Shown here piece after piece: positions 7,532 through 18,150 of a stretch of 64,000 nucleotides of DNA; position 1 is the stretch's first letter, and each line of letters starts with the position of its first letter. The notes under the pieces are model-generated. The model made no database searches, was not told the origin of the DNA, and worked only from the letters and a program-made list of their open reading frames with translations. The position numbers were made by a program, and so were the translations under genes. This stretch comes from an uncultured Chloroflexia bacterium (GTDB lineage: Bacteria; Chloroflexota; Anaerolineae; Anaerolineales; RBG-16-64-43), in contig CAWADT010000016.1 of the NCBI GenBank assembly GCA_963780865.1, positions 27,793 through 91,792 on the forward strand. Reading direction: 5' to 3'.

Positions 7532-9071
7532 TTAGAAATTTTGGCGCGGGCGATACTGCAACGCCTCAGCCAGATGCGCGGGCGTGATATTTTCAGCGGC
7601 CGAGAGATCGCCGATCGTGCGCGCCACTTTCAGCACGCGGTGGAAAGCGCGGGCCGAGAGCTGCAGCTGCTGCATGGCCGCGCGCATCAGCGCGGAGCCG
7701 GCGTCGTCGAGGCGGCAGTAGCGGCGCACGTCGCCGGCGCGCATTTCCGCATTGCACGTGAGGCCGCTCCCGGCGAACCGCTCGCGGGCCCGCGCCCGGG
7801 CGGCTTCCACGCGGGCGCGCACAGCCGATGAGCTTCGCCCGGCTGCGGATCCGCGAGTTTTGCGAACTCCACCCGCGGCACCTCGACGTGAATGTCGATC
7901 CGGTCGAGCATCGGGCCGGAAATGCGCTTTTGATAGCGGGTGACCAGGGCCGGGGCGCAGGTGCAGGCGCGCACGGAATCGCCGGCGTAGCCGCACGGGC
8001 ACGGGTTCATCGCCGCCACCAGCATGAAGTTGGCCGGGAAGGTGAGCGAGCCGTGGGCGCGGGAAATGGTCACCACTTTGTCTTCCAGCGGCTGGCGCAG
8101 CACCTCCAGCACGCGCGTCCCGAATTCCGGGAACTCGTCCAGGAACAGCACGCCGCGATGGGCCAGGCTGATCTCGCCCGGCCGCGGCCAGTTGCCCCCG
8201 CCCGCCAGCCCGGCGTGCGAAATGGTGTGATGCGGCGCGCGGAACGGGCGGCGGCGGATCAGCGGGACATCCGGCGGGAGCTGGTCCGCTACCGAATAGA
8301 CGCGGGTGATATCCAGCGCCTCTTCGAGGGATAGCCGGGGGAGAATGGACGGCAGCGCCCGCGCCAGCAAGCGTCTTCCCCGCGCCCGGCGGGCCGATGA
8401 GCAATACGTTGTGTCCGCCGGCGGCGGCCACTTCCAGCGCGCGCTTGGCGTGTTCCTGCCCGCGGATTTCTTCCAGCGCGGTAAAGATCGTTCGGCCGTT
8501 GTCTTCTCCCGGCGTTTCTTCGTCGCTCAGGCTCAGCGCCTGGGCGGGCGAGAGCGGGCTTTCGCCGGTGAGGTGCCGGACGAGCGCGACGACATGGTCC
8601 ACCGGATACACTTCCAAATCCGGGATCAGCGCCGCCTCGCGCGCATCGCAGGCCGGGACGAACACCCTCTTCAACCCCAGACGCCGCGCGAGCGCCGTCA
8701 TCGGCAGCACGCCGCGCACGTGGCGGACCGAACCGTCCAGCGAAAGTTCGCCGACCATCAAGGTCTGGTCCAACGCCGTCGCCGGGAATTTGGCCGGAAG
8801 CAACCAGCAACCCGACGGCGATCGGAAGATCGTAGGCCGGGCCTTCCTTGCGCAGATCGGCCGGCGCCAGGTTGACGGTAACGCGCCGGTACGGAAACGA
8901 GAGGCCGGCGTTCTTCACCGCGGCCTGAACGCGTTCGCGGCTTTCCTGCACGGCGGTATCCGGCAGGCCGACAATAACAAACGACGGCATGCCGTTGGAT
9001 ACGTCCACTTCCGTTTGGACCACGGCGCCGTCGAGACCGATCACTGCACAGGATGAAACGCGAGCCAGCAT
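7532..9071 (-). pseudogene. comM: YifB/ComM-family Mg-chelatase-like AAA+ ATPase, broken by three frameshifts
   Basis: N-terminal part in ORF 8289..9071 ([15 protein letters not shown]...[16 protein letters not shown]). Middle part in ORF 7532..8803 ([15 protein letters not shown]...[11 protein letters not shown]). ATPase core in ORF 7687..8370 ([11 protein letters not shown]...LFLDEFPEF...). C-terminus again in the frame of 7532..8803 ([13 protein letters not shown]...ITPAHLAEALQYRP). The shifts are near 8774-8780, 8369-8374 and 7833-7836. Confidence 0.85.
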
Positions 9072-9677: not shown

Positions 9678-9882
9678 CATTTTAGGGACACTCTCCCAAA
9701 CCGGAAATTGAATGCCGCGCATCATGGCACCCTCTCCCGCCGCATGCTGATTGCCCGCGAGGACGGAATAGCAAATATTCTCATTCCTACATAGTCTCCG
9801 GGAAGGTGCGGTTGTTTTCACTTCATTTTCCGCGTGACCGGGTAAGCGCAAAGTCTGAGGGTTGAGGTTTATAATATCCCGC

Positions 9883-10227
9883 ATGTCCGACTATGAAGCG
9901 TTTAACTCTTTTCCGGGCGCCGTTATCCTGTGCACCCCGGATGGAATAATTCAATATATGAACTCTACGGCTGAAGCGGACCTGGCCGAGCATGGAGGCC
10001 GGGCGCTGATCGGATCCAACGTTCTGGATTGCCATCCTGCTCCGGCGCGGGAAAAACTCGAGGCTTTGATGAGGGACCGGCAATCGAACACCTATACGTC
10101 CGAGAAGAATGGGAAGAAGAAGCTTGTCTACCAGTTCCCCCTCTATCGCGACGGCATATATTCCGCCTACGGGGAAATCTCGTTTGAAATCCCCTTTGTG
10201 ATCCCCAATTTTATCCGGACCAATTAG
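9883..10227 (+). CDS. Small PAS-domain protein
   Basis: MSDYEAFNSFPGAVILCTPDGIIQYMNSTAEADL...VLDCHP is a PAS-fold pattern. TATAAT at 9870-9875 lies only 7 nt before the ATG. An alternative TTG start exists at 9862. Confidence 0.65.
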   Translation: MSDYEAFNSFPGAVILCTPDGIIQYMNSTAEADLAEHGGRALIGSNVLDCHPAPAREKLEALMRDRQSNTYTSEKNGKKKLVYQFPLYRDGIYSAYGEISFEIPFVIPNFIRTN

Positions 10228-10575: not shown

Positions 10576-10938
10576 ATGCTTTGCGAAGTCATCGGTTACA
10601 TTGCCGCCGCCATCCTGATCTTCTTCGGGGTGCTGTTTATCTGGGCCGCCTTCGGGGCGCAATCGCATCCCGAATATATTTGCGTCGGCGTGATCAGCGC
10701 GGCCATCGGATTCGGCCTGATCTTGCTCGCCTCGTGGAAACCGGGCGCCCCCAAACCAGCCGACAACGTCACGCTGAACATCGATCTGCCCGCCAACGTG
10801 AACCTGGATTCGCTGAAATGCAAATCCTGCGGCGGGGCGCTGACGACCGACAACATCAAGATGGTCGCCGGAGCGCCGGTGGTCACCTGCCCATACTGCC
10901 ATACCACCTACCAACTGACCGAAGAACCCAAGTGGTGA
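10576..10938 (+). CDS. Small membrane protein (2 TM) with C-terminal zinc ribbon
   Basis: 120-aa ORF with two hydrophobic helices, then KCKSCGG...TCPYCH (CxxC-x19-CxxC). It is the first gene of the cassette. Confidence 0.75.
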   Translation: MLCEVIGYIAAAILIFFGVLFIWAAFGAQSHPEYICVGVISAAIGFGLILLASWKPGAPKPADNVTLNIDLPANVNLDSLKCKSCGGALTTDNIKMVAGAPVVTCPYCHTTYQLTEEPKW

Positions 10939-10996: not shown

Positions 10997-12694
10997 ATGA
11001 AAAACAAATTCCTCTTCTCCGCCGTCCTACTGTTTGTGCTGCTGGCATTTCCGATCCGCGCCGCGGCCGCGTCCTATTCGTTCGCCCTCCCTCAGGAAGA
11101 CGTACAAGCGTATTGGAACGCCGACGGAACCCTTTCGATCGACTACACGTTCGCGTTTCAAAACGATCCCGGCGCGAGCCCGATCGACTACGTGGACGTG
11201 GGCATTCCCAATTCCAATTACGATATCTCCAAGGTCACCGCCGACGTCGACGGCTGGCCGATCACCGACATTCAAACCTCGCAGTACGTCTCGGTCGGGG
11301 TCGCGCTTGGATTGGGAGCCCGGGCTATCCCGCCCGGCACCTTAGGCACCGTCCACGCCCACATCGACCGGGTGAGCAGGGTCCTTTATCCGGACAGCAG
11401 CGATTCCAAATATGCCAGCGCGGATTTCTCCCCCACCTGGTTCGATTCCTCCCTTGTGCACGGATCGACGAACCTGAGCGTGACCTTCCATCTGCCCCCG
11501 GGAGTCGGACCCAACGACCCGCGCTATCATAGCAATCCGCAAAATTGGCCCAACGCGAATGCGCCCGCCACGGCGCTGGACAGCAATGGATTAGTGACCT
11601 ATACCTGGCAAAGCGCCGACGCCAATGGGTCTACCCAATACACCTTCGGCGCCTCCTTCCCGGCGAGCGTCGTGCCGGCATCCGCGATCGTCACTCAAAC
11701 CATCTTCGATCAACTCTCCGCGGTTTTGGCGCCGATCCTGGCGGCCGCCGCCCCCTGCCTGTGCGTGTTGGGTTTCTTCTTTTTCATCATTCTCCTGGGC
11801 GTGCTCGGCGCCTGGCAACAGAACCAGCGCAAGAAGGCTTACCTTCCGCCGACGATCGCGATCGAGGGGCACGGCATCAAACGCGGCCTGACCGCCGTCG
11901 AAGCGGCGCTGCTGGCGGAACAACCGCTGGACAGGGTGATGACGATGATCCTCTTCGGCCTGGTGAAGAAAAACGCGGCGACCGTCACCTCCAGCGATCC
12001 GCTCCAACTGAAGATTTCCGATCCCCTGCCTGCGGGGCTCTATCCGTACGAGACGGATTTCCTGGCCGCCTTCAAACCGAATGCCGCGGGTGTTCCAGCC
12101 TCGAACCAACTCGCCCTCCAGCGCAAAGGTTTGCAGGATATGACCATCAACATGCTCAAAAGCCTGCAGGAAAAGATGAAGGGGTTCTCCCGCAAGGAGA
12201 CGCTGGATTATTACAAGACGATCACCGAAAATGCCTGGCAACAGGTGGCCGCGGCGGGAACGCCGGAAGTGAAAGCCCAGGCCCTGGACGACAACCTCGA
12301 ATGGACGATGACCGACCGCGACTTCGAAACCCGCTCGCAGACCGTCTTCGGCGGCGGACCGGTGTTCGTCCCGATTTGGTGGGGGCGCTACAACCCGACC
12401 TTCGGCGGCGGAACGGCCGCGCCGATGCCGTCCCTCGGCGGGCACGGCGGCGCGATCTCGCTGCCGCATCTGCCCGGCGCGGACTTTGCCGGTTCGATCG
12501 TCGGCGGAGTGCAATCGTTCTCGAAAAACGTGATCGGCGATCTGACCGGATTTACCAGCAACATTACAAACAAAACCAATCCCATCCCGGTCGCCACTTC
12601 CTCCGGCGGCGGATGGCACGGCGGCGGTGGCGGCTGCGCTTGCGCGTGCGCGTGCGCCGGTTGCGCCTGCGCCTGCGCGGGAGGCGGACGGTAG
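10997..12694 (+). CDS. DUF2207-like single-pass membrane protein with C-terminal Gly5-(Cys-Ala)n-GGGR tail
   Basis: Signal peptide (MKNKFLFSAVLLFVLLAFPIRAAAA). The N-terminal ectodomain pattern (YSFALPQEDVQAYWNADGTLSIDYTFAF) resembles DUF2207. Central TM is APCLCVLGFFFFIILLGVLGAW. A segment of the ~290-aa C-terminal part (GLTAVEAALLAEQPLDRVMTMILFGLVKK) is reminiscent of the TIGR04222 domain. The protein ends GGGWHGGGGGCACACACAGCACACAGGGR*. Confidence 0.85.
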   Translation: MKNKFLFSAVLLFVLLAFPIRAAAASYSFALPQEDVQAYWNADGTLSIDYTFAFQNDPGASPIDYVDVGIPNSNYDISKVTADVDGWPITDIQTSQYVSVGVALGLGARAIPPGTLGTVHAHIDRVSRVLYPDSSDSKYASADFSPTWFDSSLVHGSTNLSVTFHLPPGVGPNDPRYHSNPQNWPNANAPATALDSNGLVTYTWQSADANGSTQYTFGASFPASVVPASAIVTQTIFDQLSAVLAPILAAAAPCLCVLGFFFFIILLGVLGAWQQNQRKKAYLPPTIAIEGHGIKRGLTAVEAALLAEQPLDRVMTMILFGLVKKNAATVTSSDPLQLKISDPLPAGLYPYETDFLAAFKPNAAGVPASNQLALQRKGLQDMTINMLKSLQEKMKGFSRKETLDYYKTITENAWQQVAAAGTPEVKAQALDDNLEWTMTDRDFETRSQTVFGGGPVFVPIWWGRYNPTFGGGTAAPMPSLGGHGGAISLPHLPGADFAGSIVGGVQSFSKNVIGDLTGFTSNITNKTNPIPVATSSGGGWHGGGGGCACACACAGCACACAGGGR

Positions 12695-12698
12695 CGCC

Positions 12699-14016
12699 AT
12701 GCTCCGCGAGCGTTTCTTCCGCGCCCGGATCAAACCGCCCGCCCCGGGGTTGTATCATTTCCGCCGCGAGGCCGGCGGCGGATTCTCGCGCGTCCACCTG
12801 CGGGTGGACCCGGACGGCCACGGAACACTGGTGGTCGACGCCGCGCGGATCCTGCACCTCAATCCCACCGCGGCACAAATGGCCTACCTGGCCTTGGAAG
12901 GAATCCCGTCCGACGCAGCCGCCCGCTCGATCGCCGGCGAATACCGAGATTCGCGGGCGCAGGCCCGAGGCGGATTTCCTCGGCATCGCGGCCCAGGTGG
13001 ATGCGCTCACCCGCCCCGACGGGCCCTGCCCGGTTTGCGACCTCGAATTGGACATCCGCGCGCCCTTCAGCCACACCCCCTCGGCGCCGTACCGAATGGA
13101 CCTGGCGCTTACCTATCGCTGCCAGAACGATTGCGCCCACTGCTATAACGCGCGGCCGCGATCGTTCCCCGAGCAGCCCGCCGCGGTCTGGAAACGGATG
13201 ATCGACCGCTTATGGGATCTCGGCATCCCGCACATCGTGTTTACCGGCGGCGAACCGACCCTGCGGGGCGACCTGCCCGAGCTGGTAGCCTACGCCGAAC
13301 GAAAAGGGCAGATCACCGGCCTCAACACGAACGGACGCCGGTTGCAAGACCGGACGTTCCTGCAATCCCTGGTGGACGCGGGTCTGGACCACGTGCAGAT
13401 CACGCTCGAGAGCCACGAGGAAGCCCTCCACGATTCGATCGTCGGCGCGCACGGCGCCTGGCGGCAGACGGTGGACGGGGTGCGCAACGCGCTTGACACC
13501 CGCCTCTACGTGATGACCAACACCACGCTTTTGCGAAGCAACACCCCTGCGCTTGAGGAAACTCTCGAATTTCTGGCCGCTACCGGCGTGCCGACCGTGG
13601 GGCTGAACGCGCTGATTTATTCGGGCCGGGGCGCGACGGTGGGCACCGGGCTTTCCGAAGGGGAATTGCATCCGCTGCTCGAGCTCGCGCGGGAGAAGAC
13701 CGCCCGAAACAAACAAAAGCTCATCTGGTATACGCCGACGGAATATTGCCACTTCGATCCGGTCCAGCAGGAATTGGGAGTGAAGGGCTGCACCGCGGCG
13801 ATGTACAACATGTGCGTCGAACCCGACGGCGGCGTAATCCCGTGCCAATCCTATTACCAACCGCTGGGCAACCTGCTCGCGGAGGAATGGAACAGCATTT
13901 GGAACAGCGACCTGGCGGTTTCGCTTCGCGAGCGCCGGCACGCCGCGGAGAAGTGCCGGGAGTGCGCGCTCTTCGCGGAATGCGGCGGGGGATGCCCGCT
14001 GGCTCCGCGCGGCTGA
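12699..14016 (+). CDS. Radical SAM/SPASM enzyme with N-terminal PqqD/RRE-like domain (apparent 1-nt frameshift at 12964-12966)
   Basis: The ATG at 12699 is 4 nt after the preceding stop. N-terminus is MLRERFF...LHLNPTAAQMAYLALEGIPSDAAARSIAGEYR, in the frame of ORF 12627..13148. The rest is in the frame of ORF 11545..14016. CX3CX2C (CQNDCAHC) is at 13120-13143, GGEPTL follows, and the SPASM signature CX2CX5CX3C (CRECALFAECGGGC) is at 13954-13995. Removing one C of CCC 12964-12966 joins the frames. Confidence 0.85.
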
Positions 14017-14091: not shown

Positions 14092-15246
14092 ATGGCAGCC
14101 TTGATTAAATCCTTACGCGATCGATTGCAACCCGTCGCCGCGCTTCCGGCCGGGGTGCATCACTATCAATCCAAACCCTCTTCGCCCTCGCCCTTCCGCC
14201 TTCATCTGCGGCTGGAAACCGACGGCAGCGGCATTCTGATCGTGAACGCGTCAACCATCCTCCATCTAAACCAGACGGCCGCCGAGTACGCCTACCAATG
14301 GGTGAAGGATTTCCCGCCCGACGATGCCGCCAAAGCAATCGCCGCGCGGTACCGCGTCAGCCGCAAGCAGGCCCGGCAGGATTACCAGGATTTCATCCAA
14401 AGGGTGGAGACTATGCTTAATACACCGGACCTGGATCCGGTGATGTATCTGGATTTCGCCCGCGAGGAACCCTACTCCAAGGAACTCTCGGCGCCCTACC
14501 GGCTGGATTGCGCGCTCACCTACCGATTGCCCGAGGGGGAAAACGTTCATTATGCCCCGATCGAACGGGTCAAGAGCGAACTTTCCACCGAGGAATGGAA
14601 GACCATCCTCTCCAAGGCCTGGGAGGCCGGGATCCCGCACGCGGTCTTCACCGGCGGGGAACCAACACTGCGCGAGGATCTGCCCGCGCTTGTGGCGCAC
14701 ACGCAAGCCATCGGGCAGGTCTGCGGTTTGCTCAGCGGCAGCCTGCGCCTCGCTTCGGCCGACTACCTCAAGACCATCCTCGACAGCGGGCTGGACCACC
14801 TGATGTTCCTCTTGCAGCCGGACCGGGAGGAATCCTGGACGGCGCTCGGCAACGCCATGGCCTCCGATCTGTCCACCACCGCCCACCTTACCCTCAACCG
14901 CGCCCTGGCCCCGCGCGCCGGATCGATCCTCGAGCGGCTCGCCAAGCTGGATGTGCGCTGGCTCTCCCTGAGCGCGTCAGACCCCGAAGGCGCGCAAGCC
15001 CTGACGGTCCTGCGCAACCGGGCGGCCGAGCTCGGGCTTTCGCTGCAATGGGACCTGCCCGTTCCGTACTCCCCGGCCAATCCCATTTCGCAGGAGATCG
15101 GCACGCCTTCGGCGGGAGCGGGCAAGGCCTGGCTGTACGTCGAACCCGACGGCGATGTCCTCCCCGAGCAGGGAGTCAACCGGGTGCTGGGCAACTTCCT
15201 GCGCGATCCCTGGGCTCAGATCTGGGCCGCCGCCCGGTCGAAGTGA
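14092..15246 (+). CDS. Cysteine-less paralog of the radical SAM enzyme (pseudo-rSAM) retaining the PqqD/RRE-like N-terminus
   Basis: The 384-aa ORF aligns along its length with the preceding gene (ILHLNQTAAEYAYQWVKDFPPDDAAKAIAARYRVSRKQARQDY; FTGGEPTLREDLPALVA). The CX3CX2C position reads ALTYRLPEGENVHY, and the SPASM cysteines are absent. Only 2 Cys occur in the whole protein. Confidence 0.8.
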   Translation: MAALIKSLRDRLQPVAALPAGVHHYQSKPSSPSPFRLHLRLETDGSGILIVNASTILHLNQTAAEYAYQWVKDFPPDDAAKAIAARYRVSRKQARQDYQDFIQRVETMLNTPDLDPVMYLDFAREEPYSKELSAPYRLDCALTYRLPEGENVHYAPIERVKSELSTEEWKTILSKAWEAGIPHAVFTGGEPTLREDLPALVAHTQAIGQVCGLLSGSLRLASADYLKTILDSGLDHLMFLLQPDREESWTALGNAMASDLSTTAHLTLNRALAPRAGSILERLAKLDVRWLSLSASDPEGAQALTVLRNRAAELGLSLQWDLPVPYSPANPISQEIGTPSAGAGKAWLYVEPDGDVLPEQGVNRVLGNFLRDPWAQIWAAARSK

Positions 15247-15393: not shown

Positions 15394-16158
15394 ATGCCCC
15401 TCTCGATCGAAGAATGGCACAATCGATTTTGCCAACAAGCCCGCTGGACCGAATCCCTGCGGGCGCATTTTTTTTCACGGATGGATTTGGGCCGCCTCGA
15501 TCGAATTCTCGAGGTGGGCTGCGGGACGGGCGCGCTAAGCGCTGCCCTCGCCCGGGACCACCCGGCGGCGAAGGTGAGCGGAGTGGATCTGGATATTCGG
15601 CGGCTGGAGTTCGCCCGGTCGCACGATCCCGCGTGCGCGTATGCCGCCGGCGACGCCCGACGGCTTCCCTTTCCCGCCCGCGCGTTCGACGCGGTTCTTT
15701 GCCATTTCCTGCTGCTGTGGATTCCATCGCCCGCGGCGGCCGTGCGCGAAATGGCGCGGGTGGTGCGCCCGGGAGGCTGGGTGATCGCGCTGGCCGAGCC
15801 GGATCATACCGCTCGGATCGATTTTCCCCTGCCGCTGGAGAGGCTGGGCGGATTGCAAACCGACGCGCTCCGCCGGCAGGGAGCCGACCCCACACTAGGC
15901 CGCCGACTGGCGGAATTATTCGCCAATTCCGGATTGAGCGTCGAGGAAACAGGCATCCTGGGAGCACAGGTTATTCCCGCGGAACCGAGCGGCGGGGATT
16001 CTGAGCTTGAATGGAGGATCCTAAAGGAGGATATCGGCCCCCGGGTTTCGGAATCCGAATGGGAGACTTTCCGCAAAGCCAATTCCGTTTCGCGTGAGCG
16101 CGGTGCACGCGTGTTGTTTGTTCCCACTTTTTATTGTTTTGGCCGGCGAAGGGATTAG
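15394..16158 (+). CDS. Class I SAM-dependent methyltransferase
   Basis: Motif I is ILEVGCGTGALS, followed by a post-I acidic residue (GVDLD) and RVVRPGGWV. The ORF track start is 15370 (TTG). I prefer the ATG at 15394. Confidence 0.8.
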   Translation: MPLSIEEWHNRFCQQARWTESLRAHFFSRMDLGRLDRILEVGCGTGALSAALARDHPAAKVSGVDLDIRRLEFARSHDPACAYAAGDARRLPFPARAFDAVLCHFLLLWIPSPAAAVREMARVVRPGGWVIALAEPDHTARIDFPLPLERLGGLQTDALRRQGADPTLGRRLAELFANSGLSVEETGILGAQVIPAEPSGGDSELEWRILKEDIGPRVSESEWETFRKANSVSRERGARVLFVPTFYCFGRRRD

Positions 16159-17624: not shown

Positions 17625-17798
17625 GGTTCCTCCTCATGGATTCCCGGCGGGCCCCATTCTCCACCGGTTCGATTACAGTGTATCAGACGACACCCAAAGG
17701 CAAATGGTTCCCATCTCCATCGCCAAGATCGGCTGTTCTCGTATATTTCAGCCGCGAGACAGATAACCAGAATCTGCAGTCCTTATGCCGTGATTCGC

Positions 17799-17906
17799 AA
17801 TTCTTGCAGCCGGAATCGACAATTCCTTTCGCCGGGTTCCCGATTCTTGTAGCCGGGATCGACGATTCCTTTCGCCGGGTTCCCGATTCTTGTAGCCGGG
17901 ATCGAC
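17799..17906. repeat. 43-bp tandem repeat (~2.5 copies) carrying the TGTAGCCGGGATCGA motif
   Basis: Units start at about 17799, 17842 and 17885 (GATTCTTGTAGCCGGGATCGACGATTCCTTTCGCCGGGTTCCC). The last unit pairs with the first unit of the adjacent 21-bp array to form the palindrome TGTAGCCGGGATCG/ACGATCCCGGCTACA. Confidence 0.8.
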
Positions 17907-18049
17907 GATCCCGGCTACAGCCACGACGATCCCAGCTACAGCCACGACGATCCCGGCTACAGCCACGACGATCCCGGCTACAGCCACGACGATCCCAGCT
18001 ACAGCCACGACGATCCCGGCTACAGCCACGTCGATCCCGGCTACAGATT
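17907..18049. repeat. 21-bp perfect-period tandem array (6 full + 1 partial copies)
   Basis: GATCCCGGCTACAGCCACGAC repeats at 17907, 17928, 17949, 17970, 17991, 18012 and 18033, with G/A variation at one position. There are no spacers. Confidence 0.9.
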
Positions 18050-18150
18050 AATCGAGTATTAAAGAACCTCCCGGATAAGAATGCCATTAATCTTTCGCGC
18101 TAATCTCCGGCCATCCCGGCTCGGGAAGCCGGCGGGCCTTTTCGCGCGCC

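Follow-up and report, generated by a model that had tools for sequence, protein, structure and literature searches.

Why would a bacterium maintain, immediately behind a radical S-adenosylmethionine (rSAM) enzyme, a second full-length copy that lacks all of the iron–sulfur ligands of the first? The question is raised by a gene at positions 14092–15246 of the forward strand of a 64,000-nucleotide stretch of DNA (the window) from an uncultured Chloroflexia bacterium, contig CAWADT010000016.1 of assembly GCA_963780865.1. This gene is an open reading frame (ORF) for a 384-amino-acid protein without an Fe–S motif, here called the pseudo-rSAM, which stands in a cassette together with a membrane protein ending in a Cys-Ala tail, an active rSAM/SPASM paralog, and a methyltransferase. 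An earlier note, made from the sequence alone, had proposed that the protein is a catalytically dead paralog retained for a non-catalytic role such as chaperone, scaffold, or heterodimer partner. We found that the loss of the ligands is old and conserved, and we suggest, with moderate confidence, that the protein is a non-catalytic subunit or scaffold, bearing a RiPP (a peptide made on the ribosome and modified after translation) recognition element (RRE), for maturing the CACACACAGCACACAGGGR tail of the membrane protein.

An rSAM paralog without cluster ligands

As the earlier note had stated, the protein contains exactly two cysteines, C140 and C211, neither of which lies in the former cluster loop, and the strings quoted for it, ALTYRLPEGENVHY and WLYVEPDGDVLPEQGVNRVLGNF, are both present. 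The former radical SAM cluster loop (14512–14553) reads ALTYRLPEGENVHY, in place of A(L/I)TYRCQNDCAHCY in the active enzyme: the CX3CX2C loop of the enzyme has become TYRLPEGENVHY, with LTYRLPEGENVHY as the replacement string, and the stretch that would carry the CX3CX2C motif of the radical SAM superfamily reads LPEGENVHY. The YC.FDP of the active enzyme is likewise replaced by YSPANP. Toward the C-terminus, a Cys-free remnant of the first SPASM hairpin (15130–15174) reads WLYVEPDGDVLPEQG and aligns with MCVEPDGGVIPCQSY of the active enzyme, which becomes LYVEPDGDVLPEQGV in the pairwise alignment, and the protein ends 23 residues further on. There is no cysteine after residue 211, and the seven-Cys pattern of SPASM domains (PF13186/TIGR04085) is absent. 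An alignment of 81 pseudo-rSAMs with 63 active enzymes revealed that the CX2CX5CX3C...CGGGCP part is wholly missing, the pseudo-rSAM stopping just past the first SPASM hairpin; that the C-terminal half of the barrel carries two deletions of ~14 residues each; and that both the beta3 motif NTN and the segment ES..HD, located behind beta4, have been altered or deleted. The GGEPTL motif of beta2 (14653–14670), which contacts the methionine of SAM in active rSAM enzymes, is retained, and T187, G188, G189, and E190 are invariant in an alignment of pseudo-rSAM orthologs (alignment A1). The sequence thus shows that all ligands of three [4Fe-4S] clusters are gone and that the pseudo-rSAM is unable to cleave SAM reductively; as it can bind neither the radical SAM cluster nor the auxiliary clusters, radical chemistry is closed to it.

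The rest of the protein remains recognizable as a member of its family. Similarity to the upstream enzyme, which had been described as colinear with the pseudo-rSAM, extends over the full length and is not limited to one short region: in BLASTP comparisons with the two frame pieces into which the enzyme falls in this assembly, the RRE part was 43% identical over the first 90 amino acids (E 2e-20) and the remainder 33% identical over the next 310 (E 2e-47). The statement that the two proteins share their barrel strands has to be qualified by the two deletions in the C-terminal half, and the region that had been aligned with the SPASM domain is indeed Cys-free but consists of the first beta-hairpin only. 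The RRE-like N-terminus was correctly recognized. Among Pfam models, Radical_SAM (PF04055) scored 30.6 bits (cut-off 29.5), PqqD (PF05402) scored 23.4 bits over amino acids 51–104, equal to its cut-off of 23.4, and SPASM scored 17.8 bits, under its cut-off of 21.5. The RRE, a PqqD-like winged-helix domain, spans approximately amino acids 20–110 (14149–14421), and PF05402 is stronger in divergent Cys-less relatives, at 31–32 bits. An AlphaFold2 model built from a 40-sequence alignment, with a mean predicted local distance difference test (pLDDT) of 81 and a predicted template modeling score (pTM) of 0.82, begins with four strands followed by three helices, as in an RRE-type winged helix, and continues as an alternating beta/alpha barrel, as in a partial (beta/alpha)6 TIM barrel. 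The top Foldseek matches of the model in the PDB were PqqE (6c8v), SkfB (6efn), and SuiB (5v1q), with E 1e-10, and the best match at the level of sequence profiles was also PqqE.

Conservation and origin of the pseudo-rSAM

We found the frame to be intact and full-length, as had been claimed for it. A Shine-Dalgarno sequence, GGGAGG, lies 5 nt upstream of the ATG, the GC content at the three codon positions (0.66/0.47/0.80) is similar to that of neighboring genes, and the gene has no indel relative to its counterpart in locus L001 (91% amino-acid identity), a locus with ~85–88% nucleotide identity to the window across the cassette genes. A search of a protein collection with the pseudo-rSAM returned more than 7,000 matches, and the best 120 were inspected: these were 56–92% identical, nearly all 380–392 amino acids long, and came from metagenome-assembled genomes of Anaerolineae/Chloroflexota. 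The CX3CX2C motif occurred in none of these 120, and nearly all had LTYRLP....(Y)A and WLYVEPDGDVLP.QG. The same was observed at 80 species-level genome loci, including those of the cultured strains Levilinea saccharolytica KIBI-1 and Ornatilinea apprima P3M-1, where CX3CX2C was absent from 80 of 80 pseudo-rSAM orthologs (1–5 Cys each) and present in 63 of 63 full-length active partners (11–15 Cys each). The Cys loss is therefore conserved, a point on which the earlier note had made its own reading depend. Length is steady at 380–392 amino acids in more than 100 homologs down to ~50% identity, and the ratio of nonsynonymous to synonymous substitution rates (dN/dS) between the window and L001 was 0.074 in the pseudo-rSAM, compared with 0.077 in pnp and 0.10 in the active enzyme. 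These comparisons show a protein that is being maintained, not the outcome of recent decay.

Constraint is unevenly distributed along the protein. Invariant residues of alignment A1 fall in the RRE region, HLRL...G..L..NA..LHLN.TA.E.A, and among Anaerolineales orthologs the RRE is more conserved in the pseudo-rSAM than in the active enzyme (identity 0.57 and 0.51, respectively), the C-terminal barrel less so (0.50 and 0.68). When 1.84 billion cluster representatives were searched with a profile, 181 representatives of 50%-identity clusters matched below 1e-30, active relatives included, and ~29 of these were full-length and Cys-less. When these 29 divergent representatives were aligned with the window protein (30 sequences), mean pairwise identity was 0.51 in alpha1-beta2-alpha2-beta3, 0.40 in the RRE, and 0.40 in beta1, and was lowest, at 0.19–0.29, in the C-terminal part of the barrel and in the SPASM stub; GGEP was lost in 4 of the 30 (FCGTEPTEV, FVGSDPQES, FYGDEPTRR, and FLDVPEEEK). 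Three divergent Cys-less proteins, P0166, P0150, and P0153, directly follow a gene for a 445–450-amino-acid rSAM-SPASM enzyme, with gaps of 2–11 nt. On the contigs of P0166 and P0153, a 123-amino-acid zinc-ribbon protein and a 581–588-amino-acid tail protein are encoded upstream and a complete 246-amino-acid methyltransferase downstream; the contig of P0150 is only 3 kb long, starts at the rSAM gene, and cuts off the downstream ORF.

Two candidates arising from these comparisons were rejected. A metagenome protein, P0160, had the appearance of a pseudo-rSAM–methyltransferase fusion and proved to be a frameshifted read-through, the stretch between its domains being an out-of-frame translation. 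Gene conversion or a co-evolving interface between the paralogs left no signal: identity between pseudo-rSAM and active enzyme was 0.354 within genomes and 0.350 between genomes. We also observed five proteins (P0180, P0186, P0192, P0218, and P0250) of 404–460 amino acids that have no CX3CX2C and only 2–6 Cys; they might represent other rSAM/SPASM paralogs in which Cys was lost independently.

The taxonomic distribution indicates where the pseudo-rSAM arose. In a sample of 301 genomes from the class, nine of ten genomes of the same order carried both a Cys-less ortholog (50–59% identity) and the active paralog; outside the order, one family (G272) had both copies, and all other positive families had the active enzyme only. 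In lineages without a pseudo-rSAM, a tail protein with the identical CACACA...GGGR ending is encoded directly upstream of the rSAM gene, and a methyltransferase directly downstream of it. In a quick maximum-likelihood tree, all pseudo-rSAM sequences formed one clade (100% support in the Shimodaira–Hasegawa-like approximate likelihood ratio test, SH-aLRT), and the sister group of this clade consisted of the order's own active enzymes (87%); together the two were nested among the enzymes of active-only lineages, and the sub-groupings of the two clades mirrored each other. The simplest history consistent with this tree and gene order would be one tandem duplication within the tail protein–rSAM–methyltransferase row of an Anaerolineales ancestor, after which the downstream copy lost its clusters.

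The C-terminus of the active enzyme also differs between the two sets of lineages. Active enzymes of lineages without a pseudo-rSAM continue past CGGGCPL into a conserved extension that bears Cys (YVEEHAYRCLDTQSNAV and YVNEGEYLCVESQSTAP are examples); where a pseudo-rSAM is present, 61 of 62 active enzymes lack Cys beyond CGGGCP. The extension was compared over active orthologs L018–L037 versus L038–L117. On these alignments, the catalytic copy, too, is altered after the duplication.

The gene cassette and the proposed role

The cassette is encoded on the forward strand throughout. Its first gene encodes a 120-amino-acid protein with a transmembrane (TM) segment and a zinc ribbon (10576–10938), found upstream of the tail protein in 63 loci, and is followed by that of the tail protein itself (10997–12694), a 565-amino-acid signal/TM protein and presumed substrate with the C-terminus GGGGCACACACAGCACACAGGGR, whose tail is encoded at ~12626–12691. 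The active RRE-rSAM-SPASM paralog (12699–14016) and the pseudo-rSAM come next, and the last gene encodes a class I SAM methyltransferase (15394–16158; Methyltransf_11, 80.5 bits). A small protein of 121 amino acids (9862–10227) changes its place within the cassette: in the window its gene precedes that of the zinc-ribbon protein, and a homolog sits between the active and pseudo-rSAM genes in roughly half of the loci. Downstream of a SIMPL-domain gene, at 17700–18100, a ~21-bp tandem array is suggested by perfect tandem repeats of RRSRLQP and CSRDRRG in ORF translations of both strands.

In the window, the active paralog, which the earlier note had simply called an enzyme, is split over two frames; the close relatives L001–L003 have an intact 438-amino-acid gene. 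The frames are separated by one extra C near 12962–12966 (CCC instead of CC), and without it the protein reads AQAEADF, as in relatives. This base is the only net frameshifting indel in the cassette relative to L001; a few kb upstream, comM (7532–9071) has 1-nt insertions at 8368 and 8775 relative to the same locus. Because relatives are intact and comM carries further single-nucleotide insertions, the frameshift is probably an assembly error rather than a real inactivation in the window strain.

The tail CACACACAGCACACAGGGR was the same in nearly all of the 68 readable loci; what differed was how many CA units lead it, a single A-to-V change, and one copy with a frameshift. The Gly/Ser linker before the Cys-Ala tail varies freely among loci, and a conserved segment, (V/I)GN..(F)T..(V/I)T..TNP.P, lies immediately upstream of the tail. 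Where the upstream flank was at least 5 kb long (64 loci), the active gene was located upstream on the same strand in 62, at a gap of 17–3818 nt (median 515 nt), and the tail protein was also found in 62. Of 56 loci, 49 encode a methyltransferase no more than 6.5 kb downstream of the pseudo-rSAM gene, which it adjoins or overlaps in 25, and seven have none in that range. For seven of the eight loci without an upstream active gene, one was present elsewhere in the genome, usually as a pair of tail protein and rSAM on another contig, so that orthologous loci almost always carry, or are accompanied by, both copies. We detected no convincing terminator between the active and pseudo-rSAM genes, which are co-oriented, closely spaced, and probably co-transcribed. 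The cassette most likely encodes a pathway that modifies the invariant Cys-Ala tail of the membrane protein.

What the pseudo-rSAM might contribute to such a pathway is suggested by where selection acts on it. A retained non-catalytic role, as the earlier note had it, agrees with the conservation of the family and the low dN/dS, and we think it reasonably likely that this role is that of an RRE-bearing subunit or scaffold, because selection centers on the RRE and the N-terminal half-barrel and not on the substrate cavity or the SAM site. The RRE of the pseudo-rSAM would dock the conserved segment upstream of the Cys-Ala tail in the 565-amino-acid membrane protein, and its half-barrel would pair with the active rSAM. 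The tail would thereby be presented to the active rSAM, before or alongside the methyltransferase, for radical chemistry on the (Cys-Ala)n repeat that would probably be thioether cross-linking, and might then be passed on to the methyltransferase.

Several observations weigh against a subunit or scaffold of this kind. The identical tail occurs in lineages that have a single enzyme and no pseudo-rSAM, and the helper is therefore dispensable for the basic reaction. Among solved RRE-rSAM-SPASM maturases, monomers predominate. Where cassettes are split, the pseudo-rSAM stays with the methyltransferase and the tail protein with the active rSAM. In two loci, L044 and L107, the tail protein is directly followed by the pseudo-rSAM with no active gene between them. 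Finally, C140 and H265 are invariant in alignment A1, though less so in divergent members, and absent from the active enzyme, which makes a new activity conceivable. Elsewhere in the L044 and L107 genomes we observed an active-type gene, which belongs to a second full cassette in one and encodes a 46%-identical divergent enzyme in the other.

A stronger form of the subunit reading, which we put forward only tentatively, is an obligate two-subunit enzyme into which a self-sufficient maturase would have turned after the duplication: the cluster-free copy would dock the substrate and the catalytic copy would have shed its C-terminal Cys-bearing extension, an end-point of the asymmetry seen in the paralogous maturases TrnC and TrnD. 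If this were true, neither protein alone would process the Cys-Ala tail, and lineages with and without the pseudo-rSAM would offer a natural before-and-after test of how a pseudoenzyme becomes entrenched in radical SAM chemistry.

Alternatively, the pseudo-rSAM could serve mainly as an adaptor for the methyltransferase, its RRE holding the (modified) tail and any pairing with the rSAM being secondary. The class I methyltransferase has no recognition domain of its own, it is frequently adjacent to or overlaps the pseudo-rSAM gene and usually lies within 6.5 kb, and the split cassettes keep the two together and apart from the tail protein and active rSAM, all of which would suit an adaptor. We nevertheless regard this as unlikely, since the adjacency is inherited: a methyltransferase directly follows the active rSAM in lineages without a pseudo-rSAM, and the order rSAM–copy–methyltransferase is therefore what a tandem duplication would produce, which weakens adjacency as a sign of special coupling. 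The seven loci without a methyltransferase within reach also speak against an adaptor.

The invariant C140 and H265, together with other residues that are fixed in the pseudo-rSAM clade and different in the active enzyme, raise the alternative of a neofunctionalized enzyme, whose remodeled barrel would perform cluster-independent chemistry on the tail as a lyase, an isomerase, or the catalyst of a thiol-dependent step. The very strong constraint on the protein and the retention of GGEP in most members would fit such an enzyme. Judged from the alignment together with the model's secondary structure, C140 appears to lie where beta1 begins, at its N-terminal end, off the face of the barrel that usually carries the active site; in several divergent Cys-less members it is replaced by L, and others have lost GGEP. 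The C-terminal half-barrel, the part that makes up the substrate cavity of rSAM enzymes, is moreover the least conserved part of the protein (0.19–0.29 pairwise identity, as above), and a new catalytic activity seems improbable to us.

It is more doubtful still that the pseudo-rSAM is a competitive regulator whose RRE sequesters the tail from the active enzyme and so adjusts how far, or when, it is modified. In both paralogs the RRE has the strand motif (I/V)LHLN.TAA, and the same segment of the tail protein could thus be bound by either; against this, co-oriented, closely spaced, and probably co-transcribed genes fit stoichiometric co-production better than regulation. Lastly, a decaying pseudogene or an annotation or assembly artefact, which the 1-nt frameshifts in the active paralog and comM might bring to mind, can be set aside with near certainty, as decay is contradicted by the intact frame, dN/dS of 0.074, constant length, and good ribosome-binding site and is refuted by the conservation data.

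Comparison with known systems

A precedent in the GG-Bacteroidales system, which the earlier note had mentioned, does exist: TIGR04150 (IPR026418) is named pseudo_rSAM_GG and is paired there with the rSAM/SPASM protein TIGR04148 and the precursor TIGR04149. For the pseudo rSAMs of IPR026418, no experiment has established a function, and they are assumed to partner an rSAM (PMC10352776, 2023), and the pseudo-rSAM of the Bacteroidales system is similarly presumed to be an rSAM partner (PMC4573289). Like TIGR04150, the Chloroflexota protein is a radical SAM look-alike without a cluster motif that is encoded beside an active rSAM/SPASM enzyme and a Cys-containing substrate. Unlike TIGR04150, it belongs to another phylum and is of independent origin, its clade being sister to the enzyme of its own cassette, and its putative substrate is the tail of a 565-amino-acid membrane protein instead of a small GG-leader peptide. 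TIGR04150 (threshold at least 250 bits) gave no match on the pseudo-rSAM ORF, and a search of the whole genome gave only 21.5 bits, on another contig.

The curated haloarchaeal family TIGR04347 (pseudo_SAM_Halo, pseudo-SAM/SPASM protein) likewise consists of rSAM/SPASM-like proteins without a functional radical SAM site, but its name indicates a retained SPASM region, whereas that of the pseudo-rSAM is truncated and Cys-free. Against its cut-off of 525, the pseudo-rSAM scored 35 bits and is thus not a member; the active paralog scored higher, 111 bits, and no NCBIfam model reached its cut-off on the pseudo-rSAM ORF. Literature searches on pseudo-rSAMs returned only papers on the Bacteroidales system and no description of the Chloroflexota family or cassette. 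By these searches, the family is new and uncurated, within a known but functionally unexplored category of pseudo-rSAM partners. Its polarized origin and its presence in cultured strains make the role of a dead radical SAM paralog directly testable, and for Anaerolineales systems, attempts to reconstitute the chemistry of the Cys-Ala tail might not succeed with the active enzyme by itself.

PqqD/PqqE, SkfB, SuiB, and CteB are RRE-dependent rSAM-SPASM maturases, which use the RRE to dock the substrate peptide for the barrel; of these, PqqE, SkfB, and SuiB are the solved structures nearest to the pseudo-rSAM in fold and sequence. PqqE, SkfB, SuiB, and CteB are catalytic and PqqD is a small stand-alone RRE, whereas the pseudo-rSAM is a full-length dead paralog. 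For the active partner and the tail protein, CrpC/CrpA and QhpD/QhpC are relevant precedents of a protein-size substrate (PMC13692751): CrpC of Methanococcus voltae is an RRE-rSAM-SPASM enzyme that cross-links the whole Cys-rich protein CrpA, and, in contrast to the cassette described here, the abstract and outline of that account mention no pseudo-rSAM partner. The best experimental model for how the pair may work is TrnC and TrnD of thuricin CD, paralogous rSAM/SPASM sactisynthases that are encoded together and function only when tightly bound to each other; of their radical activities, that of TrnC alone is essential (PMC12093266). By analogy, the two maturases of the Chloroflexota cassette would form a similar couple, with the difference that TrnD binds clusters and is an active rSAM enzyme, whereas the second partner here is cluster-free and is linked to the active enzyme by co-occurrence and synteny.

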